Below, in pieces: positions 1,826 to 56,850 of a stretch of DNA of 64,000 nucleotides. The stretch is from Myxococcota bacterium (GTDB taxonomy: Bacteria > Myxococcota_A > UBA9160 > UBA4427): NCBI GenBank assembly GCA_965250285.1, contig OZ252299.1:4160001-4224000 (forward strand). Reading direction: 5' to 3'. The number at the start of each line of letters is the position of its first letter. The stretch's first letter is position 1. The position numbers and the translations under genes were made by a program. Below the pieces are notes generated by a model. That model was given only the letters and a program-made list of their open reading frames with translations. It searched no databases and was not told the DNA's origin.

Positions 1826-3654
1826 GCATCCAGACCTGGACCTTCGTGTTCGTCGGGCTGTCGTTCTCGCTGTATCTCTTCATCGCCTGGCGCTCGCGCG
1901 TGGCCGACACCAAGGGGTTCTACGTCGCCGGCCAAGGCGTGCCCGCGTCGGCGAACGGCATGGCGACGGCCGCCGACTGGATGAGCGCCGCTTCGTTCAT
2001 CTCGATGGCCGGCATCATCTCGTTCATGGGGTACGCCGGTGGCGTCTACCTCATGGGCTGGACGGGCGGCTACGTGCTGCTCGCGCTGCTCCTCGCACCC
2101 TACCTGCGCAAGTTCGGCCACTTCACGGTGCCGGACTTCGTCGGGGACCGATTCGAGTCGAACGTCGCGCGGGTCGTCGCGGTGTGCTGCGCCATCTTCG
2201 TCAGCTTCACCTACGTCGCCGGACAGATGCGCGGGGTCGGCATCGTCTTCTCGAGGTTCCTCGAGGTCGACGTCACGGTGGGCGTCGTCATCGGCATGGC
2301 CATCGTGTTCGTCTACGCCACGCTCGGGGGGATGAAGGGCATCACCTGGACCCAGGTCGCGCAGTACTGGGTGCTGATCACCGCCTTCCTGGTGCCCGCC
2401 ATCGCGATCAGCATCAAGCTGACGGGCCAGCCGCTACCGCAGATCGGGATGGGATCGGACTTGATCGAGGGCGGTATGCCGCTGCTCGACAAGCTCGACG
2501 CGATCCATGAAGACCTCGGCTTCGACCCCTATACCGAGGCGTTCGTCGGCCGATGGGATCGCATCAACGTGCTGTGCACGACCCTCGCCCTGATGGTCGG
2601 CACCGCGGGCCTGCCCCACGTGATCGTTCGCTTCTATACGGTGAAGACCGTCGACGCCGCGCGCTGGAGCGGCTTCTGGGCGCTGCTCTTCATCGCGGCG
2701 CTCTATCTCACGGCACCGGCGACGGCGGCCTTCGCCCGGTACTACATGATCGACAGCCTGAACGACAAGCAGGTGCACGAGCTGCCGGCCTGGTACCGAA
2801 GCTGGAGCCAGACGGGCCTCATCCTCTGGCTCGACGATGGCGACGGTCGCGTGCGCTACACCGGCGGCGAGCGGTCGGCCGAGAACGAGCTGTTTCGAAG
2901 CGGTGGTCTGGGGGCCGCCGAGCTCGCCGAAATTCGCAGCGAGCACCGCGCGTGGATCGAGAGCGGCGGCACGAACGGCGCGGACGGTCGGGAGGAGATG
3001 CGCGCGCTCGGCCTCACGGGCCCCGACCGAGACATCATCGTGCTCGCGACCCCCGAGATGGCCGGCCTCGCGAGCTGGATCATCGCGCTGATGGCGGCCG
3101 GCGGGCTGGCCGCGGCGCTCTCGACGGCGTCGGGGCTGCTGCTCGTCATCTCCTCGAGCGTGGCCCACGACCTCTACTACCGCGTGCTGAAACCCGAGGC
3201 CAGCGAGAGCCAGCGCCTGCTCGTCGGCCGCGCGGTGATCGGCGTGGCCGTCGTCGTCGCCGGACTCTTCGGCATCTTTCCACCCGGCTTCGTCAGCCAG
3301 GTCGTCGCGTTCGCGTTCGGTCTCGCAGCGGCCAGCTTCTTTCCGGTCATCGTGCTCGGAATCTTCTCGAAGCGGGTCTCGACGATTCCCGCAGTGGCGG
3401 GCATGGTCGCGGGCATCGGCTTCACCGCGACGTACATCCTCGGTGCGGTCTACGGCGGCATGCCGCACTGGTGCTTCGGGATCGGACCCCAGGGCATTGG
3501 CACGATCGGGATGCTCGTGAACTTCGCGGTCACGCTGGGGCTGACGCCGCTCTTCCCGCCGCCATCCGAAGAGGTGAAGCGGATGGTCGACGCGATCCGC
3601 GAGCCCGAAGGCGTGGGCCCGGCGGTCGACATCGAGGCCGCGATCGACCACTGA
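1822..3654 (+). CDS. Sodium:solute symporter, ActP/VC_2705-like (monocarboxylate uptake)
   Basis: NGMATAADWMSAASFISMAG, LMVGTAGLPHVIVRFYTV and AALSTASGLLL motifs; GTG start at 1822 coupled to the DUF4212 stop. Confidence 0.92.
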   Translation: MSIQTWTFVFVGLSFSLYLFIAWRSRVADTKGFYVAGQGVPASANGMATAADWMSAASFISMAGIISFMGYAGGVYLMGWTGGYVLLALLLAPYLRKFGHFTVPDFVGDRFESNVARVVAVCCAIFVSFTYVAGQMRGVGIVFSRFLEVDVTVGVVIGMAIVFVYATLGGMKGITWTQVAQYWVLITAFLVPAIAISIKLTGQPLPQIGMGSDLIEGGMPLLDKLDAIHEDLGFDPYTEAFVGRWDRINVLCTTLALMVGTAGLPHVIVRFYTVKTVDAARWSGFWALLFIAALYLTAPATAAFARYYMIDSLNDKQVHELPAWYRSWSQTGLILWLDDGDGRVRYTGGERSAENELFRSGGLGAAELAEIRSEHRAWIESGGTNGADGREEMRALGLTGPDRDIIVLATPEMAGLASWIIALMAAGGLAAALSTASGLLLVISSSVAHDLYYRVLKPEASESQRLLVGRAVIGVAVVVAGLFGIFPPGFVSQVVAFAFGLAAASFFPVIVLGIFSKRVSTIPAVAGMVAGIGFTATYILGAVYGGMPHWCFGIGPQGIGTIGMLVNFAVTLGLTPLFPPPSEEVKRMVDAIREPEGVGPAVDIEAAIDH

Positions 3655-3684
3655 GGGGCGGCGCGCCGCCCTCGGCCGCGCCGC

Positions 3685-5685
3685 TCAGCCTTCGAAGACG
3701 GCCTGCAGCTCGTCGAGCGCCTGCTGCTCGACCGCCGAGACGTGGGGGCTGCGCTCGAGCGCATCGCCCGCCGCCTTCGCCACGCGTTCGGCACGACCGA
3801 GCAGGTTGCGGGCGAGGTTCTCGGCCTCGCCGTCCTTGAGCTCGTGCTTCAGCGCGCCGACGAAGGCCTTCCAGGCGATCAGCAGATCCTCGGGCGGTCG
3901 CTCGAGGGTCCAGATCTCGAGCAAGCGATAGGGGATGCTGTCGCTCTCGAGACCCGCAACCGCGGCGGCCTCGAGCACGGCGGCCCGTTCTCGGACGTCC
4001 ATCTCGCCGTCTGACCAGGCGACGTGCACCAGCGGGAAGAGCGACAGCGCCGACAACGTCTCGACGCGAATCCCGAGGCCCGCCAGCTCGGCCAGCACGG
4101 CCTCGTCGCGAATCCCCGTCGCCTCGGCGATGTGATCGCGCGCCTCGAGCTCTTCGAGCGCCAGCTTCAGGCGCTCGCGCTCGGCGTCGGCCTCACCCGA
4201 GAAGAACGCGTCGCCAAGACGCGCCTGCTCCGAGTCGAGGCCGCCCTGCTCCGCAGTCGGCGCATCGGCGCTCTCGCACGCCGACTGCAGGGCGTCGAAC
4301 GAATCCTGCAGGCACTGCGCGTAGAAGCCCGGGTCGGGCATCATCTCACGGCAGCACGTGATCGCGATGCTGATCTGGCCCGAGTAGCTGAACACCGGGT
4401 GGATCAACCCCATGCCGTCCATGATCGGCCCCATCCCGTGGAGGGCGACCATCTTGGCACCGGTGAAGTAGAGGGGGATCTGCGGCCCGGGCACGTTCGT
4501 GATGATCGTATTGCCGATCGGCTTGATGCGCGTCGCGAGGCCGAGTCGGGTGTACACGCGAGCGGCGAGTCCGGCCAGCATGCCGGGCATGAACTGAGTC
4601 GCGTCGGTCATCGTGCGGGCACCGACGGCCTCCGACGTCGCCTTCGACGCCTTCGTTGAGGCATGGATGCGGCGAAGACGCTCGAGCGGATCGGCGAGAT
4701 CGCTGTGCAGCCCGACGCCCATCATCGAGATCTTGTTGCCCGCGGTGCCCTTCTCTTCTTCGGTGCGCACCGAGATCGGCGCCAGGGCCTTGAGGGGCTC
4801 GCGCGGCAGCTCGCCGTGATGCTCGAGGTATTGGCGCATGGCTCCGCTGCAGATCGCGAGCACGACGTCGTTGACCGTCGCGCCCGGCACACGCTTTCGA
4901 ATGTCGCGGATGTCCTGCAGCGAGAACGACCGGCCCTCGACGACGCGATACGACGACACCCGGCCGTTGAAGCGCGTGCGCGGCACCTCCTCGTCTTCTT
5001 CGTGGTCGACCTCGGCCGTCGGATCGGATCTGAAGAACGTCGACAGCCCGACCGCATTGCGCGTGAGCATGCGAGCGAAGCGGAACGGCGAGCGGACGTT
5101 GTTGGCCGTGGCGCGAATCGTCAACTCGAGCATGCTCGGATCGCGCTCGGGCACCCAGGGCCGCTCGGGCGGCACCACCGTCGCCTCGGGCTCGATGTCG
5201 TGGATCGCCGTCGCGAGCTCGGCGCCCGATACGCCGTCGATGGCCGCGTGGTGGATCTTCGTCATGACCGCAAAGCTGCCCGGCGGCGCGCCCTCGACAT
5301 TGTCGAGGCCCTCGATCACGTACATCTCCCACAGCGGCTTCGACAGATCGAGCGGGCGCGCGTGCAGGCGCGCCACCTGGATGCAGAGCTGTCGCCAGTC
5401 GCCCGGGTGCGGCAACGCGATGTGGCGGATGTGGAACTCGATGTCGAAGTCGGGGTCTTCGATCCAGTACGGGTGGTCGAGGTCGAAGGGCGAGTGGACC
5501 AGCTTCTGCCGGAAGCAGCGCGCCAGATGAAGGCGGCTCTCGACGTTCCTCAGGATGCCCGTGAAGGTGACCTGGCCACCCGGGGCGGTCGACTGATCGT
5601 AGATCGCGAACGAACCGATGTGCGTCGGCGCGTTCGCGGTCTCGAAGTAAAGGAAGGATGCGTCGAGTCCGCTGAGCTGCTCCAC
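3685..5685 (-). CDS. Wax ester synthase/diacylglycerol acyltransferase (WS/DGAT) with a fused ~190-aa C-terminal TerB-like domain
   Basis: LSGLDASFLY start, catalytic HHAAIDGVSG and ITNVPGP; the extra C-terminal domain contains VAWSDGEMDVRERAAV. Confidence 0.9.
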   Translation of the reverse strand: MEQLSGLDASFLYFETANAPTHIGSFAIYDQSTAPGGQVTFTGILRNVESRLHLARCFRQKLVHSPFDLDHPYWIEDPDFDIEFHIRHIALPHPGDWRQLCIQVARLHARPLDLSKPLWEMYVIEGLDNVEGAPPGSFAVMTKIHHAAIDGVSGAELATAIHDIEPEATVVPPERPWVPERDPSMLELTIRATANNVRSPFRFARMLTRNAVGLSTFFRSDPTAEVDHEEDEEVPRTRFNGRVSSYRVVEGRSFSLQDIRDIRKRVPGATVNDVVLAICSGAMRQYLEHHGELPREPLKALAPISVRTEEEKGTAGNKISMMGVGLHSDLADPLERLRRIHASTKASKATSEAVGARTMTDATQFMPGMLAGLAARVYTRLGLATRIKPIGNTIITNVPGPQIPLYFTGAKMVALHGMGPIMDGMGLIHPVFSYSGQISIAITCCREMMPDPGFYAQCLQDSFDALQSACESADAPTAEQGGLDSEQARLGDAFFSGEADAERERLKLALEELEARDHIAEATGIRDEAVLAELAGLGIRVETLSALSLFPLVHVAWSDGEMDVRERAAVLEAAAVAGLESDSIPYRLLEIWTLERPPEDLLIAWKAFVGALKHELKDGEAENLARNLLGRAERVAKAAGDALERSPHVSAVEQQALDELQAVFEG

Positions 5686-7799: not shown

Positions 7800-9389
7800 C
7801 TACGCGAGATCGTCGCCGCGGCTCGGGAGCATCAGCCCCCCGGCGGCCAGCAGCAGCAGTCCGAGGGCAAATGCGCCCCACGGACCGACACCCGGCACGA
7901 GGATCTCGATCTCACAGGTGGACGAGCAGCCGTCTTCGTCCGCCGTGTTGCCGTCGTCGCAGACCTCGCCCGGATCGAGCACGCCGTTGCCGCAGACCTC
8001 GGGCTGGCAGACGGCCGAACAGCCGTCGCCGTCGTCGACGTTGCCGTCGTCGCAGCCCTCGCCCGAGTCGATGACGCCATTGCCGCAGCTCTCGAGCTGA
8101 CAGGTCTCGGAGCAGCCATCGCCCCCGATCGCGTTGCCGTCGTCGCAGCTCTCGCCGACGTCGACGATGCTGTTGCCGCAGGCTTCGACGGCGCAAATGG
8201 CCGAGCAGCCATCGCCGCCCATCGTATTGCCGTCATCGCACGCTTCGCCTGGATCGAGCACTGCGTTGCCGCAGACCTCGAGCTGACAGACGGCCGAGCA
8301 GCCATCGCCCCCGGCCGTGTTGCCGTCGTCGCAGGTCTCGCCCACGTCGACGACGTCGTTGCCACAGGCCTCGGCCTGGCACGTGTCGGAGCAGCCGTCG
8401 CCGCCCACCGTGTTGCCGTCGTCACAGGTCTCCCCGACGTCGACCACGCTGTTGCCGCAGGCTTCGATCTCGCAGGTCGCCGAGCAGCCGTCACCGCCAA
8501 CGGTGTTGCCGTCGTCGCACGCCTCGCCTGCATCGACGTTGCCGTCGCCGCACACCTCACCGAGCGAAGGTGCCGTGCCCACGAGCGTCATCTGCACGTC
8601 GTTGTAGACGAGGCTGGTGACGGTGATCTCGACCGTCGTCACGAAGAACAGGCAGCCGATGAAGGTCACCGCGCACTCGTTCACGTCGGTGACGACCGTC
8701 GGCGAGCTGCCCAGGTCGATCAGCATCTGATTGGCCGAGATGTCGAGGATGGTGTCGCCACCGGCCTGGCTGAGCGTGCCCGAGAGCGGCAGATCGCCCG
8801 AGCTGCTGAACGGCTCGGCCCCGATGCCGTAACTGATGATGCCGGTGACGGCGCCGTCCGAGACGCCGGTGAACTCGAAGTTCGGGGTGCCCGAGAAGGC
8901 CCCACCCGCGAGCGGCATCGTCAGCGGTGCATTCAGCTCGAGGCCCTGTTCCACGATGTTGTAGACGAGGTTCAGCGTGAGCAGGTTCGCCCACACCATC
9001 TGCCCCGTGCCCGACTGACCGACGAGCCCGCCAATGCTGAGATCCTCGAGCGTGACCTCGCCGGTCTGCGTATCGAGCGTGACCGTCCCATCGGCGGCGT
9101 AGCCCGGATTCATGACCGTCGCGCTGCCGGTCGTGAACTGCGCTCCGAGCAGTCCGTCGCTGTTCGCGATCACGTCGAAGTTCACCGTGATCGAACCCGA
9201 AGTGAACGTACTCTGCGTCTCGTCTACGTCGAAGACCTGCTGCGCTGCCCCCGCCGACCCCGTGAGGCCAATGCTGGCCAGGGCGACGAGGAACGCAGTG
9301 ACCAGGGCCCCCTTGCCCCGAGCGCTGCGACGCCGCGATCTGCCCAACTGATTCCACTGACTTGCCAACGTCAACATCCGATTCTCCAT
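7800..9389 (-). CDS. Secreted/surface protein with 7 Myxococcus Cys-rich (DUF4215) repeats and a C-terminal IPTL-CTERM-like anchor
   Basis: Signal peptide, beta-rich N-domain, 7 x CG(N/D)xxxDxGExCDDGNxxxxDGCSxxC and C-terminal [21 protein letters not shown]. Confidence 0.85.
7903..8556 (-). repeat. Seven tandem 93-bp coding repeats (31-aa Cys-rich units)
   Basis: Recurring ttgccgtcgtcgca...gagcagccg units at 93-bp period inside the CDS; boundaries approximate. Confidence 0.9.
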
Positions 9390-10882: not shown

Positions 10883-12400
10883 TCAGCTCGGGCTCGACAC
10901 CTCTTCGAGCCCACCGGTCTGAATCTGCTCGACGAGCAGCGCGCGCTGCACCTGACCGGTGGCGGCCGTGCGCGGCAGCGCGTCGATCAGGAAGAGCCGG
11001 CGCGGCTTCTTGAAGCCGGCGAGCTTGCCTTCGAGCGCCGCAGACAGGGCCTCGAGCGAAAGCGCAGCGCCGCCGCGCGCGACCGCCACGGCGCAGACCA
11101 CCTCGCCCCAGTCGACGTCGGGCACACCGACGACGGCGATCTCGTCGACGCCCGGTGCGCCCGCCAGGGCCGCTTCGACCTCGCTCGGCGAGATGCTCTC
11201 GCCCCCACTGCGAATCAGCTCCTTCTTGCGGCCGACGATCGAGAGGTACCCCTCGTCGTCGAACGCCCCGAGGTCGCCGGTGTAGTACCAGCCGTCGCGC
11301 AGGCTGTGGGCCGTCGCGTCGGCATCGTCGAAGTAGCCATCCATGAGAAAGGCGCTGCGGCAGCGAATCTCGCCTTCGTCGGTGAGCTCGACGTCGACGC
11401 CGATCGATGCCGGCCCGACGCTGCCGGGCTTCCGAAGCACGTCTTCGTCGGCGAGGTTCGTCGCCGACCCGCACTCGGTCGAGCCGTAGTAGATGCGCGT
11501 CACGGTGTCTGGGAACCGATCCTTGAGCGACCGCACCAGCTCGATCGGCACTGCCGACGTACCCGTGTCGAGCTCGCGCAGCGCGGATAGATCCCAGCGA
11601 TTCGTATCGAGCGCGAGGATGCGGTTCCACACGAGCGGGATGCAGTAGATGCGATTCGATCGATGACGCTCGGCCGCATCGAGGATCGCCTCGGCCGTCG
11701 CCTGCTCGACGAAGGCGATGTCGCCGCGCGTCTGCCAGGCCGCGAGCGCGAGCGTGAACGCCGCCATGTGAAAGAGCGGAAACATGCAGACGGTCTTCTC
11801 GGGCGCATCTCGAAAGACGCCCTGGAACGTCCGTAGATGATTCGCACGGTGGGAGAGCACGACGCCCTTCGGGCGACCGGTGCTCCCGCTCGTGAAGAAG
11901 ACGACGTGCGGGTCACCCTCGCGCAGGGCCGGCTCGTCGAGATCGCGCGCGTCGTCGAAGCGCGCTGGCTCGAGGATCGGGTCGAAGCCCGAGGCTGCGC
12001 CCGGATAGAACGCAACGCGCTCGATCCCGGCGACCTGTGCGACGCGTTCGGCGTCGCTGGCGCGCACCGCGTCGACCACCAGGAGGGTCGCGCGAGCCAG
12101 CCGGGCGACCTCGGCCGCCTCGTCGGCGCCGAGGCGCGCGTTGAGCGGCGCAAACACCGCGCCGAGCTTCGCGAGCGCGACGAACAGCGGCAGCACGTCG
12201 AGCGAGGTGTCGGCCCACGACACGACGCGGTCGCCGTGCCCGACGCCGAGGGCCCGCAGCGCCCAGGCGAGGCGGTTGCCATTCGCGTCGAGCTCACCGT
12301 GCGTGACGACGCGGTCACCCAGCGAAGCCGCAGGGCGGTCGGGGACGACCCGCGCGTTGCGCCGGAAGAGATCGCCGATGAGGAGCGGTCGGGTTGCCAT
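10883..12400 (-). CDS. Acyl-CoA synthetase (class I adenylate-forming enzyme)
   Basis: FTSGSTGRPKG, YYGSTE, WYYTGDLG and GRKKELIRSGGE motifs. Confidence 0.93.
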   Translation of the reverse strand: MATRPLLIGDLFRRNARVVPDRPAASLGDRVVTHGELDANGNRLAWALRALGVGHGDRVVSWADTSLDVLPLFVALAKLGAVFAPLNARLGADEAAEVARLARATLLVVDAVRASDAERVAQVAGIERVAFYPGAASGFDPILEPARFDDARDLDEPALREGDPHVVFFTSGSTGRPKGVVLSHRANHLRTFQGVFRDAPEKTVCMFPLFHMAAFTLALAAWQTRGDIAFVEQATAEAILDAAERHRSNRIYCIPLVWNRILALDTNRWDLSALRELDTGTSAVPIELVRSLKDRFPDTVTRIYYGSTECGSATNLADEDVLRKPGSVGPASIGVDVELTDEGEIRCRSAFLMDGYFDDADATAHSLRDGWYYTGDLGAFDDEGYLSIVGRKKELIRSGGESISPSEVEAALAGAPGVDEIAVVGVPDVDWGEVVCAVAVARGGAALSLEALSAALEGKLAGFKKPRRLFLIDALPRTAATGQVQRALLVEQIQTGGLEEVSSPS

Positions 12401-12412
12401 GAGCCGAGATCC

Positions 12413-12446
12413 AGAATACCATTCTACGCTCTGGGAACAATGTTCT
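12413..12446. promoter_or_regulatory. Two related 13-bp palindromes in the divergent ligase/TetR intergenic region (candidate TetR operators)
   Basis: AGAATACCATTCT (12413-12425) and GGAACAATGTTCT (12434-12446), 21 bp apart and AT-rich against the GC background. Confidence 0.6.
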
Positions 12447-12507
12447 CTCGCGAGATCTCGGGCGCGCCCGGCCGAATGGGCCGCCGACGCCCGATCAGGA
12501 GTCCACC

Positions 12508-13158
12508 TTGGCCGATGCCCTGCCCGCCGCTTCCGCCGTGGTCGAGCGCTCGCTCGCGAGCCGTCGCGCGGCCGCCGAAGCCGAGGTGGGCCGGCTGATC
12601 GAGGCCGCGCTCTCGGTCATCCAGCGTACGGGGCAGCTCGAGCCCCGGGTCGGCGAGATCGTGCGCGAGGCGGGTCTGCACAATCAGGCCTTCTACCGGC
12701 ACTTTCGCTCGAAGCACGAGCTGCTCGCCGCGGTGCTCGATCACGGCATCGCCGTGCTGGCGAGCTACGTCGACCACCGAATGGCCGCCGCCGAGACACC
12801 GAGCGACCGAGTCGAGGCGTGGCTATCGGGGGTACTCGAGCAGGCCCTCGACCCGTCGGGCGCCGACGCGACCCGGCCCTTCGCGCTCGCGCGTGGACGC
12901 CTCGCCGAGGTCTGCCCCGACGAGGTGCGAGAGTCGGAGCGCCGACTCACGGCGCTGCTCGCCCACGCGATCGAAGCAGGTCGCATGTCGGGCGACTTCC
13001 TCGAGGCCGATGCCGAGGGGGATGCCGAGCTCCTCTACACCCTGGCCATGGGCTTCGTCGAGCGCGCACTCGCGGCGAACGCGACGCCGTCACGAGACGA
13101 TGCCGCGCGACTCGTCGACTTCGCGCTGGCCGGTCTGTCGCGCAGCGGCGGTCGGTAA
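12508..13158 (+). CDS. TetR/AcrR family transcriptional regulator
   Basis: HTH VGEIVREAGLHNQAFYRHFRSKHELL; TTG start after AGGAG. Confidence 0.9.
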   Translation: MADALPAASAVVERSLASRRAAAEAEVGRLIEAALSVIQRTGQLEPRVGEIVREAGLHNQAFYRHFRSKHELLAAVLDHGIAVLASYVDHRMAAAETPSDRVEAWLSGVLEQALDPSGADATRPFALARGRLAEVCPDEVRESERRLTALLAHAIEAGRMSGDFLEADAEGDAELLYTLAMGFVERALAANATPSRDDAARLVDFALAGLSRSGGR

Positions 13159-13161
13159 CCG

Positions 13162-13734
13162 ATGGAACGCGAGGTCTTTCTCACCGGCATCGGCGGCCAG
13201 GGCGTCCAGCTCGCCGCGCGCATCCTCGCGCTCGCCGCGATGGAAGAAGGCCGCGAGGTGATGTCGCTCGGGACGTACGGCGGCACGATGCGCGGCGGCA
13301 ACACCGACTCGACCGTCGTCGTCGCCGACACGGGCATCGGCGCGCCCCCGATCGTTGCGCGGGGCTGGTCGGCGCTCGTGATGCACCCGCGCTACTTCGA
13401 GCCGCTGCGCGCGAAGCTGCGCGCCGGCGGCGTGGTCGTCTACGACGCCGGCCTCGTCGAGGGCGAGCTCGACGTCGGCGATGCACGCGCGTTCGGCGTC
13501 GATGCCGGCGCGCTCGCCAAGCAGGCCGACGCCCGCGGCGCAGGCTCGATCGCGCTGCTCGGTGCGTACTGCGGCCTCACGGGTCTCGTCGGGCTCGACG
13601 CGCTTCGCTCGGCCATGAAGGCGGCGGTGCCGCCCTACCGCCACGACCGACTCGAGGCGAACGAACGCGCCCTCGCGCTGGGCTTCGAGACCTTGCCGGC
13701 TGCGCAGATGCCCGCCTGGGAGGACGCCGCATGA
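13162..13734 (+). CDS. 2-oxoacid:ferredoxin oxidoreductase gamma subunit
   Basis: TGIGGQGVQL, YGGTMRGG and N..AL..G motifs. Confidence 0.92.
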   Translation: MEREVFLTGIGGQGVQLAARILALAAMEEGREVMSLGTYGGTMRGGNTDSTVVVADTGIGAPPIVARGWSALVMHPRYFEPLRAKLRAGGVVVYDAGLVEGELDVGDARAFGVDAGALAKQADARGAGSIALLGAYCGLTGLVGLDALRSAMKAAVPPYRHDRLEANERALALGFETLPAAQMPAWEDAA

Positions 13735-13772
13735 GCCATCGACTCAGCCCCGCGGAAGGAGTCGGCGCATGA
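13731..13772 (+). other. 13-codon bridging micro-ORF (MSHRLSPAEGVGA)
   Basis: ATGA overlap with the gamma stop and ATGA overlap with the delta start; GGAGG upstream. Confidence 0.45.
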
Positions 13773-14017
13773 GCGAGATCGAGTCGCGCGGCACGGTTCG
13801 GATCGCGACTGAGCGCTGCAAGGGCTGCGAGCTCTGCGTGCCCGCCTGTCCGCCGAAGGTGCTCTCGATGTCGGCGACCCAGAACGACGCGGGCTACGCC
13901 GTGCCCGAGCTCGCGCCCGGCTGCACGGGCTGCGGCGCCTGCCTGCTCGTGTGCCCCGACTTCTGCTTCGAGATCTACCGGTACGAGACGCCCATCCGGC
14001 ACGAGGTGAGCTCGTGA
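13769..14017 (+). CDS. 2x[4Fe-4S] ferredoxin, oxidoreductase delta subunit
   Basis: CKGCELCVPACP and CTGCGACLLVCP motifs. Confidence 0.93.
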   Translation: MSEIESRGTVRIATERCKGCELCVPACPPKVLSMSATQNDAGYAVPELAPGCTGCGACLLVCPDFCFEIYRYETPIRHEVSS

Positions 14018-14055
14018 CCCCGCGATCCACAGCGCGCGACGAGGTGAGCCGATGA
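14014..14055 (+). other. 13-codon bridging micro-ORF (MTPRSTARDEVSR, GTG start)
   Basis: GTGA overlap with the delta stop and ATGA overlap with the alpha start; GAGGTG upstream. Confidence 0.45.
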
Positions 14056-15152
14056 CGCGACGACTCATGGAGGGCAGCGAGGCGATGGCCGAGGCCGCGA
14101 TCGCGGCCGGCTGTCGTTTCTTCGCAGGCTATCCGATGACGCCCTTCACCGAGCTGCTCGAGGCCTTCGCGAAGCGACTGCCCGAAGAAGGCGGTGCGTG
14201 CATCAACGCCGAGAGCGAGCTCGAGGCGATCGGCCAGGCGTGGGGCGCCGCCGCGACCGGGTCTCGCGCCGCGACCGGCTCGACGGGCCAGGGGCTCTCG
14301 CTCATGCAGGAGTCGATGTCGGAGATCACGCGCGCCGAGATCCCCATCGTGTTCTTCAACATGGCGCGCGGTCAGGGCGACTACTTTCAAGCGACGCGGG
14401 GCGGCGGACACGGCGATTATCGGCACATCGTGCTCGCGCCGATCGACGTGCGCGAAGGCGTCGAGCTCACGCAGCTCGCCTTCCACCTGGCCGATCGCTG
14501 GCGCCACCCCGTGCTGCTGCTGGGCGACTACCTGCTCGCGCATACGGCCGAAGCCGTCGACGTGACACCGATCGAGTTCGACCCGCTGCCCGAGAAGGAT
14601 TGGGCCGTCGACGGGTCGCTCGGCGGCACGGGTCGATCGCGCAACTTGAACCCGATCGGCATGGTCAAGGGCACGAAGGGCATCGACCCCGACGCGTTCT
14701 GGCGGAAGCTGCAGCAGAAGCAGGACCACATCGAGGCGAGTGAGCAGCGCTTCGAAGCCGAGCACACCGAAGACGCCGAGATCCTGATCGTCGCCTACGG
14801 CACGCTCGCCCGGTTCGCGCGGCACGCCGTGCGCGAGCTCCGCGCGGAGGGTATCCGCGCCGGCTACTTCCGACCGATCTCGCTTTGGCCCTTCCCGAGC
14901 GCCGCGCTCGCCGAAGCCGCGCGCGGCGTGGCCCGGGTCGCTTGCCTCGAGCAGAACGCGGGACAGATGATCGACGACGTGCGGCTCTCGGTACTCGGCG
15001 AAGCGCCCGTCGTCCCGATCGGCGGCATCTCGACCGACGCGGCCGGCTTCGGCATCGGACCCCTGCTCGACCCCGAGGTCGTTCGCTCTCGCATCGAGGC
15101 CGCCATCGAAGGCCGGGCCGTCGACGGTGTACTCGGAGGCGCCATCGCATGA
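14052..15152 (+). CDS. 2-oxoacid:ferredoxin oxidoreductase alpha subunit (Vor/Kor-like)
   Basis: FFAGYPMTP, AESELEA, GLSLMQE, DYFQATRGGGHGDY and EQNAGQM motifs. Confidence 0.93.
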   Translation: MTRRLMEGSEAMAEAAIAAGCRFFAGYPMTPFTELLEAFAKRLPEEGGACINAESELEAIGQAWGAAATGSRAATGSTGQGLSLMQESMSEITRAEIPIVFFNMARGQGDYFQATRGGGHGDYRHIVLAPIDVREGVELTQLAFHLADRWRHPVLLLGDYLLAHTAEAVDVTPIEFDPLPEKDWAVDGSLGGTGRSRNLNPIGMVKGTKGIDPDAFWRKLQQKQDHIEASEQRFEAEHTEDAEILIVAYGTLARFARHAVRELRAEGIRAGYFRPISLWPFPSAALAEAARGVARVACLEQNAGQMIDDVRLSVLGEAPVVPIGGISTDAAGFGIGPLLDPEVVRSRIEAAIEGRAVDGVLGGAIA

Positions 15153-15937
15153 AGATCGATACGAAGACCCAGCCCGAGAACGCCGAGCGCCGCGGAGATT
15201 TCGCGTCGCCGCTGCAGCTGACGACCGACCACGACCTGTGTCCGGGCTGCGGCGAACCGGTCGCGCTGCGCGCCATGCTCGATGCCGTCGAGAAGCTCGA
15301 TCTGCAGCGGCGCACGATCGGCGTGATCGGCATCGGCTGCTACACCGCGCTCACGTCTCTGATCGATCTCGACCTGATCCAGGCGCTGCACGGCCGCGCC
15401 CCGTCGGTCGCGACCGGGGCCAAGCGCATGCGGCCCGACCGGCTCGTCTTCACGCTGCAGGGCGACGGCGACATGGTGAACGAAGGCCTGCAAGAGGTGA
15501 TTCACACCGCGGCACGCGGCGAGAGCGTGACCTGCGTGTTGCTCAACAACGGCGTGTTCGGCGAGACGGGAGGTCACATGACCGCGACCACCGTGATCGG
15601 CCAGCGAACGAAGAACTCGCTCGAGGGCCGCGACCCGAGCTATCACGGACATCCGATCCTGATCTCGGACATGCTCGCCGGGCTGGGGGGGGTCGGCTAC
15701 GTCGCACGAGGTTCGGTGCACGACGCCGCTGGGGTGACGAAGACCCGTCGCTATCTCGAGCGCGCCTTCGAGAGTCAGATGAAGGGCGAGGGCTTCTCGT
15801 TCGTCGAGATCCTCACCATGTGCCCGACGGGCTGGTTCATCGGCACGCCCGAAGGACCGGGCTATCTCGATGAGGTCATGGGCAGCGTGCACGTGACGGG
15901 CGAGCTCAAGGTCGGCGGCGAGCTACAGCCACGCTGA
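15149..15937 (+). CDS. 2-oxoacid:ferredoxin oxidoreductase beta (TPP-binding) subunit
   Basis: CPGCG, GIGC, HGRAPSVATG, QGDGD...NNGVFGETGG and SFVEILTMCP; ATGA overlap with alpha. Confidence 0.93.
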   Translation: MKIDTKTQPENAERRGDFASPLQLTTDHDLCPGCGEPVALRAMLDAVEKLDLQRRTIGVIGIGCYTALTSLIDLDLIQALHGRAPSVATGAKRMRPDRLVFTLQGDGDMVNEGLQEVIHTAARGESVTCVLLNNGVFGETGGHMTATTVIGQRTKNSLEGRDPSYHGHPILISDMLAGLGGVGYVARGSVHDAAGVTKTRRYLERAFESQMKGEGFSFVEILTMCPTGWFIGTPEGPGYLDEVMGSVHVTGELKVGGELQPR

Positions 15938-16037
15938 ACACCGAATCTCCACACCTGTCTACAGACGGATCCTCGTCCGGACGAAAGCGTCCGAAGCGGT
16001 GCACGCCGGCATCGCCGGCCGATCGAGGATCTCGACG

Positions 16038-16859
16038 ATGGATGTGAACGCGTACTACAGCCATTCGGGCCGATTCAACCCGGCCGGCGTCGTGCTGATG
16101 ATCGCGGCGGCGCTCGTCGTCGGCCCGCTCCTCGGTGTCGTGTACGGGTACGTCGTCGCGTTCAATCCGTTCATCTACATCAACTTCCTGGCCACCCTCT
16201 TCGCGGGCGGCATCGCCGGCATGCTCGTGGGCAAGATGTCGCGTCCGGGCAAGGTGCGCAGCCTGGGTGTGTGCGCCGTCGCAGGCGTCGTCGCGGGCAT
16301 CGGGTTTCAGTACACGCAGTGGTGGGCGACCCTGCACTACTACGGCGCCGAAGTGGCGATCGATCAGCCGGCGGCGATCTGGTCCTTCATCGGCGAGCTC
16401 GCCGAGCTCGAGCCGTGGACGCTCATGGGCATCTCGCTCGGCTCGACAGGCTTCATGATCCTCTGGGCCATCGAAGGGCTGATCCTGATGGTCGCACCGG
16501 TGACGCTCGCCTGTGCCGAAGGATCGACGCCGTACTGCGAGCGCTGCGACACCTGGGCGGTCGATGCGGAGCCGCTCGGCCCCTTCGACTTCGTGAGCGA
16601 CGTCGACACGCTCAAGGCCCGCGTCGATCGGCGCGACCACGAGCCGCTCAAGGGCTTCGGACGCCCCGAAGCGACCGAGGATCGCTTCAGCACGATCACG
16701 CTGGCCTCGTGTACCGGTTGCCTGGGCCTGCGTCTCGCCACGATCAAGAACGTCGAGATCGAAGTCGAGAAGGACGGCGACACCAAACAGAACGAGTCCG
16801 AGATCTTGACCCACATCGTGCTCGACTCGCCCACCTACGACGCCCTCGCCAAGCTCTAG
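16038..16859 (+). CDS. Hypothetical membrane protein with two C-terminal CxxC motifs
   Basis: About 4 TM helices followed by YCERC and CTGC; coding-like GC3 bias. Confidence 0.7.
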   Translation: MDVNAYYSHSGRFNPAGVVLMIAAALVVGPLLGVVYGYVVAFNPFIYINFLATLFAGGIAGMLVGKMSRPGKVRSLGVCAVAGVVAGIGFQYTQWWATLHYYGAEVAIDQPAAIWSFIGELAELEPWTLMGISLGSTGFMILWAIEGLILMVAPVTLACAEGSTPYCERCDTWAVDAEPLGPFDFVSDVDTLKARVDRRDHEPLKGFGRPEATEDRFSTITLASCTGCLGLRLATIKNVEIEVEKDGDTKQNESEILTHIVLDSPTYDALAKL

Positions 16860-22228: not shown

Positions 22229-23242
22229 ATGAAGATCGATGGAAACATGCTGGTCGACGACCCCGCCGAAGCCGGCCCGATCGCAGCGACGCTCGAGAGC
22301 AAGGGCTACCACGGCGCGTTCACCTACGAGGGCCGCCACGACCCGTTCTTTCCGCTGGTGGTCGCGGCTCAGTCGACCTCGCGCATCGAGCTGATGACGG
22401 CGATCGCGATCGGCTTCGCGCGCAATCCGATGACCCTCGCAAACATCGGCTACGACCTGCAGCTGATGTCGAAGGGGCGCTTCGTGCTCGGGCTCGGCAC
22501 GCAGATCAAGCCCCATATCGAGCGACGCTTCAGCATGACCTGGTCGAAGCCCGCGGCCCGCATGCGCGAGATGATCCTCGCGATTCGGGCCATCTGGTCG
22601 TGCTGGCAAGAGGACGAGCGACTCGAGTTTCGCGGCGAATTCTACGAGCACACGCTGATGACGCCCGTCTTCAATCCCGGCCCGAATCCATTCGGTGTAC
22701 CGAAGATCTTCGCTGCCGGCGTCGGTCCGCGCATGACCGAGGCCGTCGGCGAGGTGGCCGATGGCTTCTTCGTGCACCCGTTCCACACGACCGACTTCCT
22801 GCGCACGCAGACGACGGCCTGGCTGAGTGCGGGGCTCGAGACCTCTGGGCGGACGCGAAGCGACTTCGAGATCGCCGGCCAGTGCATCATCGTGACCGGC
22901 CGCACCGACGAAGAGTTCGAGACGGCGCGCAACGGTGCTCGCGCCCAGCTCAGCTTCTACGGTTCGACCCCGGCGTACCGGCCGGTGCTCGACCACATCG
23001 GCATGGGCGATCTGCAAGAAGAGCTGAACCGGCTGTCGAAACAGGGCAAGTGGCTCGAGATGGCCGGTCTGATCGACGACGATCTGCTCGCTCAGCTCGC
23101 CGTCGTAGCGCCCCGCGACGGTCTCGCCGAAGAGCTGCGCAAGCGTTACGCCGGCGTCGTCGATCGACTGAGCCTCGTCTCCCACACATCCCCCGACCCC
23201 GATCTGTGGGCCGACGTCGTGCAGGCGCTCGCCGACGCATGA
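22229..23242 (+). CDS. LLM-class, probably F420-dependent oxidoreductase (TIGR03617-like)
   Basis: E..HDPF, IAIGFARNPM, GLGTQIKPHIERRFS, FYEHTLMTP and FYGSTPAY motifs. Confidence 0.88.
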   Translation: MKIDGNMLVDDPAEAGPIAATLESKGYHGAFTYEGRHDPFFPLVVAAQSTSRIELMTAIAIGFARNPMTLANIGYDLQLMSKGRFVLGLGTQIKPHIERRFSMTWSKPAARMREMILAIRAIWSCWQEDERLEFRGEFYEHTLMTPVFNPGPNPFGVPKIFAAGVGPRMTEAVGEVADGFFVHPFHTTDFLRTQTTAWLSAGLETSGRTRSDFEIAGQCIIVTGRTDEEFETARNGARAQLSFYGSTPAYRPVLDHIGMGDLQEELNRLSKQGKWLEMAGLIDDDLLAQLAVVAPRDGLAEELRKRYAGVVDRLSLVSHTSPDPDLWADVVQALADA

Positions 23243-23295
23243 CGGTCGCTGCGCGCAGGGGCGGCCGAGCGGCCCCTGCGGAGCCCTCCCGATGA
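23239..23295 (+). other. 18-codon bridging micro-ORF (MTVAARRGGRAAPAEPSR)
   Basis: ATGA overlap with the LLM stop and ATGA overlap with the kinase start. Confidence 0.35.
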
Positions 23296-24527
23296 GAGAC
23301 CAGTTGATCCTCACGCGAGCCCTCACGCGTGCGCTCGTCGACGTCGGCGTCGATGCGTGCAGCGATCCCTTCGGAGGGGCGCTGCCCCTCACCCCGGCGC
23401 CCTTCACCGACCCGAGCGTGCTCGCGAACCTGTTGCAAGCGCACGGGGTCACACCGTGGCCCGTCGACGAACGCCCCGAACGCATCCGTGAGACAGCGCG
23501 CGAGGCACCGAGCAGCAACTGCCGCAACTCGGTCCTCACGCTCGATTGGGCGAATTCGGCCGGCGCGGACGCACCGGCGTCGATCTTCGTGAAGCAACCG
23601 TCTCCCGATCGACCGACGCGTGTGTTCGCGAACCTGATCGGTTTCTGGAAGATCGAGTGTGCCGTGTGCCGCCACCTCTCTCGACAGCTGCCGATCGCAT
23701 CGCCCCGAATCTGGGCCGTCGACGAGCGACGAAGCCGATTCGTGATCGTGATGGAAGACCTCGCCACGCGACCGAGCGCCCGGCTCTTCGTGAACCGCGC
23801 GATGCTCGAAGGCATCGACATCGAGCTTGCCCGACGGTGCGTGCGCACGCTCGCCAAGCTGCATGCCGGGTTCGAGGGCTGGCCGAGCGAGCGCCGCGAA
23901 GCAGCATTGCCGCTCGCCCTGCATCCCTTCCTCTCGCCGTCGCTCGAGCCCATCATGCTCGCCGTGAATCGCCTCGCCGTTCCGCGCTGCGCAGAACGAT
24001 CGAATGGGATGGTCGGAGACAGCGAAGCCACCCTCGCACACCGCGCCTTCGCACACTGGCCGGCCCTGCAGCGCGCGTGGTACGGCGAACCCTGGACGCT
24101 CGTTCACGGCGACAGCCACATCGGCAACTTCTTCGAGGTCGGTGGCGAGCTGGGCATGCTCGACTTTCAGGGGGCCCACTGGGGGCGGGGGACACGCGAC
24201 GTCGCCTATTTCCTGATGAACTCGATGCGTGCCGACGTGCTCGCCGAGCACGAGCGCTCCATCGTCGAGACCTACTGCGAAGCGCGCGCCGAGCACGGGG
24301 CGCCGCTCGACCCCGAGACCGCGTGGCACGAGTACCGCGGCTTCTCGTTCCAGACGCTGATGACGTCTGTCGTCTCGCTCGGCCTCGGCTCGTTCACGGA
24401 CAGCGACGCCGTCATCGACGCCATGCTCGAACGATCGGTCGCGGCCGTGCGTCGACTCCGGTTCGCCGATTGGCTCGACGAGGCGATCGATCGCGACGCC
24501 TCGGCTCACGAAGGCCTCGCGGCATGA
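23292..24527 (+). CDS. Ecdysteroid-kinase-like / APH-fold phosphotransferase
   Basis: FVK, MEDL, TLVHGDSHIGNFF, LDFQ and DVAYFL motifs. Confidence 0.85.
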   Translation: MRDQLILTRALTRALVDVGVDACSDPFGGALPLTPAPFTDPSVLANLLQAHGVTPWPVDERPERIRETAREAPSSNCRNSVLTLDWANSAGADAPASIFVKQPSPDRPTRVFANLIGFWKIECAVCRHLSRQLPIASPRIWAVDERRSRFVIVMEDLATRPSARLFVNRAMLEGIDIELARRCVRTLAKLHAGFEGWPSERREAALPLALHPFLSPSLEPIMLAVNRLAVPRCAERSNGMVGDSEATLAHRAFAHWPALQRAWYGEPWTLVHGDSHIGNFFEVGGELGMLDFQGAHWGRGTRDVAYFLMNSMRADVLAEHERSIVETYCEARAEHGAPLDPETAWHEYRGFSFQTLMTSVVSLGLGSFTDSDAVIDAMLERSVAAVRRLRFADWLDEAIDRDASAHEGLAA

Positions 24528-24670
24528 GCGATCGCGTCGAATCCGAGAGCGAGATCGTCGGGGCGCGCATGCAGACGCGAGCACCCGGGTTCAGCGCACC
24601 CAACCCTGCGTCGCCGCACCGCCTGCGGCGCGCCCCATCACCCCCGGTCGAGTCAGGAGAATCCGAATGA
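24524..24670 (+). other. 48-codon bridging ORF (MSDRVESESEIVG...ESGESE)
   Basis: ATGA overlap with the kinase stop and ATGA overlap with the sulfatase start. Confidence 0.35.
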
Positions 24671-30261: not shown

Positions 30262-31383
30262 ATGGTGCCTGGGTCCGACACGTCACCGCCTCGTTCTGGA
30301 GGCGAGCCCTGGCGCTCGAGCGACGTCACGCAGCTCGAGCCCGGGATGGATGCGCGCCTGCGCCGGATCGTGCTGCTCACGGCGGCATGTGTCGCGACCG
30401 CCCTGTCGGGCACCTTCTGGCTGATCGGCGCCGCCAAGGACGTATCGTCCTCTGAGCGCGTGATCGTGCCGATGCTCACGCTGCTCTTCGGCACCGTCGG
30501 TCTCATCACCTGGCGCGGCCATCTTCGCCACGCCGAGCTGCTGCTGCTCTCGGTCGGCGGTGGCGTCCTGATCGAGCGAGTCCACTTCACGACGATGCAG
30601 GGCCGACCCGGCCTGATGCCGATCACCGACGCCTACGAGCTCTTCATCTGGTTCCCGTGCGTGTTCGTCTTCGCATTCCTGCTGCTCGAGCGGCGGGAGG
30701 CCATCCTCTTCAATCTCGCCGTGCTGGGCGGCGGCATCTTCGTCGTTCGAGACTGGCTCGTGCCCGGCGGCGAGATCTACCACGCCGATCTGAGCGAGTT
30801 CTTCATCGGCCTGCTCGGGTGCGCGGGCATCCTCTACGCGTTCGCCTACATGCGCGAGCGCTTGATCGACACCCACCGGATGGCCGTCGACCTACGCGCA
30901 TTCGCCGAGACCGACTTTCTGACGGGCATCGCGAATCGGCGCGCCATCACGACCCACCTGGAGCGCGAGATCAAGCGGGCGTCGCGCGATGCGACACCGC
31001 TCGCCGTCCTGCTCTTCGATCTCGACCGGTTCAAGCGGATCAACGACGGGTACGGCCATGACGAGGGCGATCGCGCGCTGCGGCGGGTGAGCCTCGTCGT
31101 CGACCGTGCGCGGCGCGACACCGACTTCTTCGGCCGCTGGGGCGGCGAGGAGTTTCTGATCGTGGCGCCGGGCCTCGATCTCGATCGGGGCGAGCAGGTC
31201 GCCGAGCGCCTGCGCGGCGTGATCGAGGCAAGCGCAGCTGGCGGCGCCATCGCCGTCACCGCCAGCTTCGGGGTGAGCGAGTACCGCTTCGGCGACGATG
31301 GCGCCAGCATGGTGAAGCGGGCCGACGAGGCGATGATTCGCGCCAAGGAATCGGGGCGAAACCGCGTCTGCCGCGAAGCGTGA
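30262..31383 (+). CDS. Membrane-bound diguanylate cyclase (GGDEF)
   Basis: About 6 TM helices; TDFLTGIANRR, DLDRFKRINDGYGH, RDTD I-site and RWGGEEF. Confidence 0.92.
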   Translation: MVPGSDTSPPRSGGEPWRSSDVTQLEPGMDARLRRIVLLTAACVATALSGTFWLIGAAKDVSSSERVIVPMLTLLFGTVGLITWRGHLRHAELLLLSVGGGVLIERVHFTTMQGRPGLMPITDAYELFIWFPCVFVFAFLLLERREAILFNLAVLGGGIFVVRDWLVPGGEIYHADLSEFFIGLLGCAGILYAFAYMRERLIDTHRMAVDLRAFAETDFLTGIANRRAITTHLEREIKRASRDATPLAVLLFDLDRFKRINDGYGHDEGDRALRRVSLVVDRARRDTDFFGRWGGEEFLIVAPGLDLDRGEQVAERLRGVIEASAAGGAIAVTASFGVSEYRFGDDGASMVKRADEAMIRAKESGRNRVCREA

Positions 31384-31486
31384 CGAGCCTCGCCGAGACG
31401 AACGCGCAGCGAGTCAGCTCGCCATCAGGTGAAGCGTGACGAGCCTCGCCGAGACGAACGCGCAGCGAGTCAGCTCGCCATCAGGT
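31375..31486. repeat. Perfect 56-bp tandem duplication at a convergent gene junction
   Basis: 31375-31430 is identical to 31431-31486. Confidence 0.95.
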
Positions 31487-55145: not shown

Positions 55146-55171
55146 GCGCCAGGACGCCACGCGCTGAGCGC
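55121..55171. repeat. 22-bp tandem duplication spanning the ppk1 stop codon
   Basis: TGAGCGCCAGGACGCCACGCGC x2 plus a partial TGAGCGC. Confidence 0.9.
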
Positions 55172-55408: not shown

Positions 55409-56686
55409 ATGGAGATCGTCACCGAAGCCAAGCTCGACCCGCCGCGCCTCAATGTGGCGCCGCCGCTCTTTCGCCGGCTGCCCGACCCGCTCGACCTGCG
55501 CGACGAGGTGCAGCTCGAGTGCCTCCTCGCCGCTGCCGACGAGCTGCTCGCACGCGCCGACGACGCCGCGACCCTCGACCAGCTCGACTGGATGGCGCAC
55601 GCCTCTCCCGAGCGCTGGTCGATTGCCGCGCGCCTGGTCGTCAAGCTCGCTCGCTCGAAGCAGGCGGTGCAGCGTCGCGTCGGTCCCCTGCACCTCTCGG
55701 TCATCGTGCCGCTCTACAAGGAACACGAGCGCATGCTGCGCCCCGAGTCACATCCGAACGGCGAGGCGTTCATCGATCGCAAGATTCGCCAGCTCGACTG
55801 GCTGCTCGCCTCGAAGCCCGGGGCCGAGTGGGAGCTCTGCCTCGTCGATGACGGCTGTCCGTTCGACAGCGGTCGACTCGCCGAAGCCTGGCTCGCCGAA
55901 CGCCACCCCGACGCGAACGCGCGAGTGCTCTTTCTCGAAGAAGCGATCCGCGACGGCGTCGCGCCCGTGCGCGATCTCGGCGGCGTCGACGAGAGCCGCA
56001 AGGGCGGTTCGATCCATCTGGGGCTCCACGACGTCACGCGCGTCAAGCGGTCGGGGCACGTCGTCGTCTACACCGACGCCGATCTCTCGACGCATCTCGG
56101 ACAGACCGGTCTGCTGATCGAGGCGATCGACGAGCCCGGCACGCTGATGGCGGCCGGGTCGCGCCGACATCCGCTCTCGGTGGTCGCGAAGAGTGCGGCG
56201 CGAAGCGCCCGGGGGCGGCTCTTCATCTATCTCTGGAAGAAGCTGCTCCCCGAGCTCGCGTATCTCGACGACACCCAGTGCGGGTTCAAGGCGATGGCCG
56301 GAGGCACCGCGCGCCGACTCGTCGAGCGTCCGCTGCTCGAGCGCGGCTTCGCCTTCGACATCGAGCTGCTTCTGCGCGTCGAGCAGAATCTCGGTCGCGC
56401 GGTCGCCGACGTGCCGATCGCGTGGATCGACAGCGAGGCGGCGTCGACGACCACCGAGCTCGAACCGTATCTGCCGATGCTGCGCAGCGTCAGCGGGCTC
56501 TACCGCGCCCTGTGTCCGCCGCGCGATGTCTCGGATCGGTTCGCAGACGCCATCGAGTCGATGAGCGAGGCCGACTGGCGGCACGCGGTCGACGAGCTGG
56601 CGCCGCCGCTCGAGACCGTCGACACGGCGCTCGATCGATCGAGCACGCCGCTGCCGGCTTCGGCGCTGCTGCAGCAGGCGGCCTGA
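55409..56686 (+). CDS. Family 2 glycosyltransferase (dolichyl-phosphate glucosyltransferase-like)
   Basis: LSVIVPLYKE, VDDG, KGG, YTDADLS, GSRR, DTQCGFKA and FAFDIELL motifs. Confidence 0.85.
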   Translation: MEIVTEAKLDPPRLNVAPPLFRRLPDPLDLRDEVQLECLLAAADELLARADDAATLDQLDWMAHASPERWSIAARLVVKLARSKQAVQRRVGPLHLSVIVPLYKEHERMLRPESHPNGEAFIDRKIRQLDWLLASKPGAEWELCLVDDGCPFDSGRLAEAWLAERHPDANARVLFLEEAIRDGVAPVRDLGGVDESRKGGSIHLGLHDVTRVKRSGHVVVYTDADLSTHLGQTGLLIEAIDEPGTLMAAGSRRHPLSVVAKSAARSARGRLFIYLWKKLLPELAYLDDTQCGFKAMAGGTARRLVERPLLERGFAFDIELLLRVEQNLGRAVADVPIAWIDSEAASTTTELEPYLPMLRSVSGLYRALCPPRDVSDRFADAIESMSEADWRHAVDELAPPLETVDTALDRSSTPLPASALLQQAA

Positions 56687-56771
56687 CCCGCCGCACGCGG
56701 CGCGGCTGCAACAGGCGGCCCGAACCGCCATACGCGGCGCTGCTGCAACAGGCGGCCTGACCCGACGTACG
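56661..56771. repeat. Three 37-bp tandem repeats, the first overlapping the GT2 3' end
   Basis: CGGCGCTGCTGCARCAGGCGGCCTGACCCG... units starting at 56661, 56698 and 56735. Confidence 0.9.
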
Positions 56772-56850
56772 CGGCAGCGCCGCGTTTGTATGCCCCATCA
56801 GCGATTGACATCGCCGCTCCGCCTGCCATCGTCGCCGCCGGAGGGGCGAC

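Follow-up and report, generated by a model that had tools for sequence, protein, structure and literature searches.

Two 13-codon micro-ORFs bridge subunit genes of a 2-oxoacid oxidoreductase operon in a Myxococcota genome and may relay ribosomes between them

Organization of the operon and its two micro-ORFs

The window analyzed here is the whole stretch of 64,000 nt, and all coordinates are positions in it unless another locus is named; its own genome is referred to as G000 and the genome of a sister species of the same genus as G001. The window carries a four-gene operon, preceded by a regulator gene, in which two of the junctions between genes are occupied by very short open reading frames. 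The features of this region, including the Shine-Dalgarno (SD)-like sequences with their duplex energies, are as follows.

12553..13158, + strand: TetR-family regulator, first gene of the cluster; all NCBIfam matches below cut-off; start taken as the ATG at 12553
13162..13734, + strand: 2-oxoacid:acceptor oxidoreductase gamma-like subunit, 190 aa, NCBIfam match; stop TGA at 13732-13734
13719..13724, + strand: SD-like GGAGGA in the gamma tail, 6 nt 5' of the micro-ORF 1 start, -10.2 kcal/mol
13731..13772, + strand: micro-ORF 1, 42 nt, 13 codons, translated as MSHRLSPAEGVGA and a stop
13756..13761, + strand: SD-like AAGGAG within micro-ORF 1, 7 nt 5' of the delta start, -11.9 kcal/mol
13769..14017, + strand: delta-like 4Fe-4S dicluster ferredoxin subunit, 82 aa, PF12838 at 40.2 bits (cut-off 27)
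14003..14009, + strand: SD-like GAGGTGA in the delta tail, -11.8 kcal/mol
14014..14055, + strand: micro-ORF 2, 42 nt, 13 codons, GTG start, translated as VTPRSTARDEVSR and a stop
14041..14047, + strand: SD-like GAGGTGA within micro-ORF 2, in the second copy of an exact 11-nt repeat
14052..15152, + strand: alpha-like subunit, 366 aa, top match VorB NF005507
15149..15937, + strand: beta-like (TPP-binding) subunit, 262 aa, NCBIfam match

The regulator and gamma genes are separated by a gap of 3 nt, and the alpha and beta genes meet in a direct ATGA overlap. VorB/Kor-type four-subunit 2-oxoacid:ferredoxin oxidoreductases are likewise encoded as gamma, delta, alpha and beta in a single operon, but all four subunits in the window score below the NCBIfam cut-offs of the 2-oxoacid:acceptor oxidoreductase subunits that they match; for the alpha-like subunit, the match to VorB NF005507 (3-methyl-2-oxobutanoate dehydrogenase) reached 328.8 bits against a curated cut-off of 399. 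The sole sigma-70-like match within 12300-16100 lies at 12394-12422 (+), in the gap that separates the TetR gene from a divergent acyl-CoA synthetase gene. Downstream of the operon, 16038-16859 (+) encodes a 273-aa membrane protein with no match in NCBIfam or Pfam. Elsewhere in the window, 7800-9389 (-) encodes a secreted-looking protein of 529 aa that contains some seven Cys/Asp-rich repeats of 31 residues (DUF4215) and in which a C-terminal VPxxG-like motif precedes a hydrophobic tail.

Micro-ORF 1 begins in the ATGA that ends the gamma gene (13731-13734) and ends in the ATGA that starts the delta gene (13769-13772), and micro-ORF 2 begins in the GTGA that ends the delta gene and ends in the ATGA that starts the alpha gene (14052-14055). 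Each shares 4 nt with the upstream stop and another 4 nt with the downstream start; the spacer is 34 nt long in both cases, and the shift from start to start is 38 nt. A preliminary description of this DNA had claimed that the 42-nt frames bridge the two junctions exactly and that an SD-like sequence precedes each of them, and both points were borne out by the coordinates, the translations and the duplex energies. With the tail of the genome's own 16S rRNA, these energies were -10.2, -11.9, -11.8 and -11.8 kcal/mol for the starts at 13731, 13769, 14014 and 14052, respectively, and the combination associated with termination-reinitiation, a -4 or -1 stop/start overlap with an upstream SD, was found at all four hand-over points. 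The micro-ORFs look non-coding, with a GC3 of 0.71 versus 0.88 and a dicodon score of -0.17 versus +0.09 to +0.23.

The predicted folding of the delta and alpha start regions was no better than that of shuffled sequences (z 0.07 to 2.4). Scanning of the junctions gave no terminator-like or promoter-like site, comparison with Rfam gave no match, and folding gave no stable hairpin; a structured RNA, a terminator or an internal promoter was rejected on these grounds. An assembly error was ruled out by contigs from three sequencing runs of the same study: a contig of run X1, which may be the source of the assembly, spans the whole stretch, a contig of X2 covers both bridges, and a contig of X3 covers the first, each with 0 differences.

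Genome-wide frequency of bridging frames

Bridges were counted genome-wide among 5,145 genes called with a self-trained model, with gene starts as given by that caller, and a bridge was defined as a spacer of 4-200 nt that has ATGA or GTGA on each side and is open in frame throughout. The frames of the two genes fix spacer length modulo 3, independently of start choice, and a bridge requires a remainder of 1. Bridged spacers amounted to 87/760 at this remainder, compared with 12/640 at remainder 0 and 17/657 at remainder 2 (p 2.6e-13), and to 56/482 versus 5/387 when only high-scoring genes were considered. Permutation of the stop contexts over 20,000 rounds gave 37.6 bridges on average and at most 59, so that the 87 bridges exceeded both the control frame and the permutation null.

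The excess was graded with the start codon embedded in the stop. Counts in the bridging frame and in the two others were 36:7:3 for ATGA, 46:10:17 for GTGA, 25:11:7 for TTGA, 79:62:60 for CTGA and 41:54:33 for TAG. Expressed as odds ratios, the excess was 6.8 overall, 10 among high-scoring genes, 12 for ATGA-ATGA spacers and 2.6 for TTGA, with a weak value of 1.4 (p 0.065) at CTGA stops. It recurred in the part of G001 that was covered (1.25 of about 5.8 Mb; 20/161, 2/114 and 4/90) and in 0.4 of the 5.0 Mb of another relative, G031 (4/60, 0/36 and 0/38). Pools of ortholog loci leaned the same way without being significant alone (4:2:1 and 4:2:0), and five proteobacterial loci showed no excess.

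These counts bear on two alternatives. Under the first, bridges would reflect how codons happen to fall in high-GC DNA rich in TGA, or a gene-caller bias. The 12/640 control-frame spacers that passed the same test do imply that roughly one bridge in six may be due to chance; the explanation itself is very improbable in view of the odds ratios overall, among high-scoring genes and for ATGA-ATGA spacers, the independence of spacer frame from start choice, and the duplication signal and strong SD present at both junctions of the window. Under the second, the micro-ORFs would belong to the neighboring proteins, as the true N-termini of delta and alpha or as C-terminal tails of gamma and delta, by way of a -1 frameshift or an assembly indel. 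Formally, a -1 shift at ATGA would bring the frames together, but the X1 and X2 contigs cross both bridges without an indel, all four subunits align with their orthologs from called start to called end, and a frameshift in the tail should also produce an excess at CTGA stops, where the one observed is weak; we give this explanation hardly any credence. An origin of bridges in upstream tail frameshifts or premature stops was likewise rejected, as the predicted excess at CTGA stops or in another frame was not seen.

Bridges are therefore a genome-wide class beyond chance and nothing special to the oxidoreductase operon. Two further ones lie in the window at 23239-23295 and 24524-24670 (18 and 48 codons), flanking an APH/EcKL kinase-like gene that sits between genes for a luciferase-like monooxygenase and a sulfatase.

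The same junctions in relatives and in a sister species

The gamma-delta-alpha-beta operon, with alpha subunits 63-72% identical, was present in Acidimicrobiia, Alphaproteobacteria, Halieaceae and Myxococcota records (loci L044-L110), and its distribution is patchy inside the organism's own family. The majority of the nearest ortholog records are titled as Myxococcota or Deltaproteobacteria metagenome-assembled genomes. The three junctions were classed in 80 genome loci and 80 metagenome loci, with duplicate junctions skipped and some loci occurring in both sets. Direct overlap prevailed throughout. In the genome loci, gamma-delta was direct in 70/77 cases (3 bridged, 2 other, 2 fused), delta-alpha in 68/77 (4 bridged, 5 other) and alpha-beta in 60/76 (4 bridged, 12 other); the respective metagenome counts were 62/68 (2 bridged, 4 other), 70/71 (1 bridged, 0 other) and 41/41 (0 bridged, 0 other). 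The two fused cases, L081 and one more genome locus, have gamma and delta in a single open frame.

A quick tree built from 80 alpha proteins places the window and its sister within lineages that have direct overlaps. Mapping the bridge label onto this tree takes 8 changes, and well-supported branches force 7 of them. Because direct overlap is the rule in orthologs and the bridged state changes repeatedly on the tree, direct overlap is likely the ancestral state, with bridges likely derived and arisen several times, as judged from these sequences.

The sister species G001 has a direct ATGA overlap at gamma-delta, with no micro-ORF 1; a 13-codon bridge of the same length and frame and another peptide (VTGRVMNTYEVTP and a stop) at delta-alpha; and, at alpha-beta, a 38-bp tandem array with four chained micro-ORFs of 13, 13, 13 and 14 codons. 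The delta-alpha bridges of window and sister are identical at 11 of the 14 bases of the 3' end and at 4 of 19 in the middle, compared with 203/300 third codon positions of alpha, and by eye their peptides have 5/13 residues in common. In the sister bridge (L031, 5121-5158), the middle is A/T-rich in a genome of 69% GC and lies just 5' of the SD, where it is possibly a translation enhancer. A relative recovered from run X4, of another study, has both bridges at unchanged net length with the differences clustered, namely at least 5 substitutions plus a one-base loss offset by a one-base gain in bridge 1 and at least 3 substitutions in bridge 2; by hand reading none of the listed differences creates a stop in the bridges, on a contig whose depth of 3.4-4.1 (below 5) makes this weak evidence.

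Across 351 syntenic junctions, 17 of the 25 that are bridged here were bridged (6) or direct (11) in G001, and the remaining 8/25 were plain gaps there; plain gaps here were bridged or direct in G001 at 25/227. The frame was retained in 7/10 versus 67/167, a comparison of few cases, and the other bridges common to both genomes kept their geometry at differing lengths.

The preliminary description had also proposed that the micro-ORF pair tunes the amount of the ferredoxin subunit that it flanks, and this proposal fared poorly. Genes flanked by bridges on both sides numbered 4 genome-wide versus 3.0 expected, the sister bridges another pair of junctions (delta-alpha and alpha-beta, not gamma-delta), and the peptides are not conserved. 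A special role around the ferredoxin was rejected because double flanking occurs at the chance rate and the bridged pair differs in the sister. The same evidence weighs on the broader reading of the micro-ORFs as dedicated regulatory uORFs, which would either adjust ferredoxin subunit levels or stall in response to a signal. What speaks for such regulation is that delta is bridged on both sides by frames of equal length with strong SDs. Besides the double-flanking count, the sister's junction pair and the limited similarity of its peptide, the conserved peptide or regulatory codons of a leader peptide or uORF were not found, the first ORF being missing in G001. The junctions also lack a terminator-like or promoter-like site, an Rfam match and a stable hairpin, and neither an attenuator nor a sequestering hairpin was seen at them. 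We consider regulatory uORFs very improbable.

Origin and length of the inserts

At each junction, the preliminary description had seen a degenerate 38-bp duplication of ribosome-binding site and start, and the similarity between junction copies, the orthologs and the sister species support this. In gapped alignments, the similarity of the first to the second junction copy was matched or exceeded by a fraction of 0.002 and 0.024 of mismatched bridges for the two inserts. Micro-ORF 1 resembles the delta start in its 5' part and the gamma tail in its 3' part, as a tandem copy across the overlap predicts, and the delta-alpha bridge of locus L269 reads, by hand, like a copy of the alpha start. Both bridges are thus likely decayed 38-bp tandem duplications of the old junction, to judge from the sequences compared. 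Neither was reported by Tandem Repeats Finder, because the copies are too decayed. Genome-wide, the duplication signal exceeded the 95th percentile in 23/79 bridges and the 99th in 14, and several bridges are near-perfect arrays with a period of 35, 41, 77, 80 or 83.

A mobile 38-bp family was rejected, as no common sequence exists among the inserts or among 133 tandem arrays. A second genome match for either window insert was absent at E 0.001, cross-matches among 122 inserts reached only 12-20 nt, 38-nt inserts from different junctions were unrelated (p 0.05-0.67), and none of the 133 arrays was related to another. The resemblance of inserts to their own flanks points to local duplication instead.

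Thirteen codons is the modal bridge length (8/87), within a peak at 9-16 codons where 41/146 spacers are bridged, and a second bump occurs at 23-28 codons (p 0.034, with bins chosen after looking). A length of 13 or 26 codons set by the ribosome was set aside, since both periods also appear in tandem repeats that have nothing to do with bridges. Tandem Repeats Finder reported 108 arrays of period 30-49 in the whole genome, 2 of 50-69 and 23 of 70-89; of the 108, 50 lie across a stop codon, where random placement predicts 10.7, and 11 lie across a start. The part of G001 that was covered held 24 arrays at period 35-44 and none at 50-84. As all tandem repeats of the genome share this length preference, bridge length looks mutational, and the equal 13-codon length of the two window bridges matches both the modal bridge length and the preferred duplication period.

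The locus-unique tandem repeats of the genome favor two period ranges, 33-46 and 70-84 bp, and hardly any fall at 47-69 bp; examples in the window lie at 56661-56775 (37 bp x 3.1), 31375-31486 and 55121-55171. In Ehrlichia ruminantium, non-coding tandem repeats at gene 3' ends are likewise locus-unique duplications concentrated at gene ends; the unit lengths in G000 are those just given.

The period of such a duplication would decide its consequence. One of period 3n+2 spanning a 4-nt overlap would create a bridge automatically, one of period 3n would lengthen the downstream protein, and one of period 3n+1 would carry restarted ribosomes past the true start out of frame, which selection likely disfavors. 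These differing consequences suggest that the length is a product of mutation and that translation acts as the filter on frame. The frame does look selected: among young duplications, the period was 3n+2 in 12/18 over ATGA/GTGA stops (11 before one array was re-assigned from period 82 to 41, 82 being 2 x 41) and in 6/32 over CTGA stops; one array of 43 bp, near 5.104 Mb, departs from this with a period of 3n+1. Three young arrays on contig C1 of G000, near 3,650-3,925 (80 x 3.5 bp), at 1,592,906-1,593,271 (77 x 4.8) and at 4,687,506-4,687,668 (41 x 4.0), each yield chains of 3-4 micro-ORFs linked by ATGA or GTGA. In G001, locus L296 (contig C84) holds a 38-bp tandem array of at least 4 units with a micro-ORF chain, and its G000 ortholog near 1,868,897 is a direct overlap.

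A proposed ribosome relay versus de novo initiation

Taken together, the two micro-ORFs are probably decayed 38-bp junction duplications that act as ribosome relays, a reading we favor with moderate confidence. A ribosome ending gamma would restart one base back with the help of the SD in the gamma tail, read 13 throw-away codons, terminate on the delta ATGA and restart there; after delta, the same relay would lead through micro-ORF 2 to the alpha ATGA. According to PMC10666635, a gap of 38 nt lowers reinitiation in E. coli by 80-90% or abolishes it, and in both Haloferax and E. coli little reinitiation is left at gaps of 20-38 nt; the genes would thus likely be uncoupled by a 34-nt gap that lacks a bridge. 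The same study reports short overlaps to be enriched among subunits of complexes (PMC10666635). The benefit would likely lie in the continued coupled synthesis of the subunits of one enzyme complex, not in the peptide or in a switch, and the genome-wide excess of bridges likely arises because they pass ribosomes on. The relay part of the preliminary description was strengthened by the ortholog comparison, the frame test and the sister species, as far as sequences can tell, and its ferredoxin-tuning part fell away.

The relay must be weighed against the view that bridges are a tolerated by-product, with most delta and alpha synthesis starting de novo at the genes' own SDs, only the harmful frame removed by selection, and the bridge itself harmless. 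As both genes have strong SDs of their own and starts that are not predicted to be hidden by a stable fold, de novo initiation could serve both, and in E. coli it occurs alongside coupling, according to PMC6728339. The SD is also weak at most micro-ORF starts genome-wide: mean SD energies were -5.7 at micro-ORF starts, -8.0 at direct overlaps and -4.6 at unbridged ATGA/GTGA stops, only somewhat better than the latter and weaker than the former. Bridges were not enriched beside direct overlaps (23/122, compared with 387/1937 for other gaps and 182/576 for direct junctions), and only 23/79 keep a duplication signal beyond the 95th percentile; all of these observations weigh on the relay. The absence of 8/25 bridges in G001 and the non-coding character of the micro-ORFs fit the by-product view as well. 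It accounts less readily for the delta-alpha bridge, which kept its length and frame between the sisters despite a middle identical at only 4/19, for the other bridges common with G001, which hold their geometry at differing lengths, and for the X4 relative with both bridges at unchanged net length, weak as that contig is. We regard a mere by-product as rather unlikely, if a serious contender.

Beyond this locus, the relay reading extends to a bolder picture that we put forward tentatively, at somewhat less than even chances: a mutational process of the lineage would generate tandem duplications, unique to each locus, of 33-46 and 70-84 bp over stops, reinitiating ribosomes would sort these by frame, and a standing class of some 75-100 translated relay ORFs, at about 2-3% of same-strand junctions, would flip with direct overlaps between sister species.

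Comparison with known systems

The closest parallel is with the MIRUs (mycobacterial interspersed repetitive units), reportedly described by Supply et al. in 1997. Both MIRUs and bridges form tandem arrays, and the bridge ORF overlaps both neighbors with a -4 spacing, like the MIRU ORF, which according to PMC12548453 and PMC3184786 is believed to keep the downstream gene expressed. PMC3184786 describes MIRUs as units of 40-100 bp that carry inverted repeats as well as 4-nt direct repeats and number 40-50 copies. The 4-nt direct repeat relative to an empty site has its counterpart at gamma-delta, where ATGA...ATGA faces a single ATGA in G001, and with one mismatch at delta-alpha (GTGA...ATGA). 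The bridge insert measures 38 bp, just under the MIRU size range. MIRUs, however, form a family of 40-50 related copies that is dispersed and believed to be mobile, whereas bridge inserts are locus-unique copies of their own junction and mutually unrelated; and the imperfect terminal and GC-rich internal inverted repeats of MIRUs were not found in the bridges, which, judged by folding only, fold no better than shuffled sequences. The hosts differ also, mycobacteria in one case and a Myxococcota-type genome in the other. By analogy, bridges would work like MIRUs, yet they are not a repeat family.

Termination-reinitiation at ATGA overlaps (PMC6728339, PMC10666635) likewise involves a -4 overlap, an intragenic SD and subunits of heteromeric complexes, but here two serial hand-overs would run through a throw-away ORF over a 34-nt gap, where the known cases have a single direct overlap. 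In the integron ORF-11 and attC short ORFs, a short ORF likewise delivers ribosomes to the next gene and its peptide matters little (PMC8876359); these are fixed parts of a recombination platform, whereas bridges appear to arise anew by local duplication at many junctions. Coupled uORFs are also reported in Sinorhizobium (PMC13285730). A published genome-wide frame test of bridging ORFs was not found within the literature covered, which was partial and had most subscription journals outside it.

Implications

The relay concept itself is already known from MIRUs and integron ORF-11. Operon predictions treat spacers of 30-80 nt as uncoupled; if bridges are translated, a few percent of these spacers would be coupled via hidden ORFs, and overlapping operons could gain spacers without losing the co-synthesis of their subunits. 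This locus provides a ready test case, as the sister species show junctions that are empty, singly filled and four-fold filled. Should the frame-filtering reading be true, the frame of spacers would let reinitiation in uncultured bacteria be read from the genome alone, with a grading of ATG > GTG > TTG > CTG.
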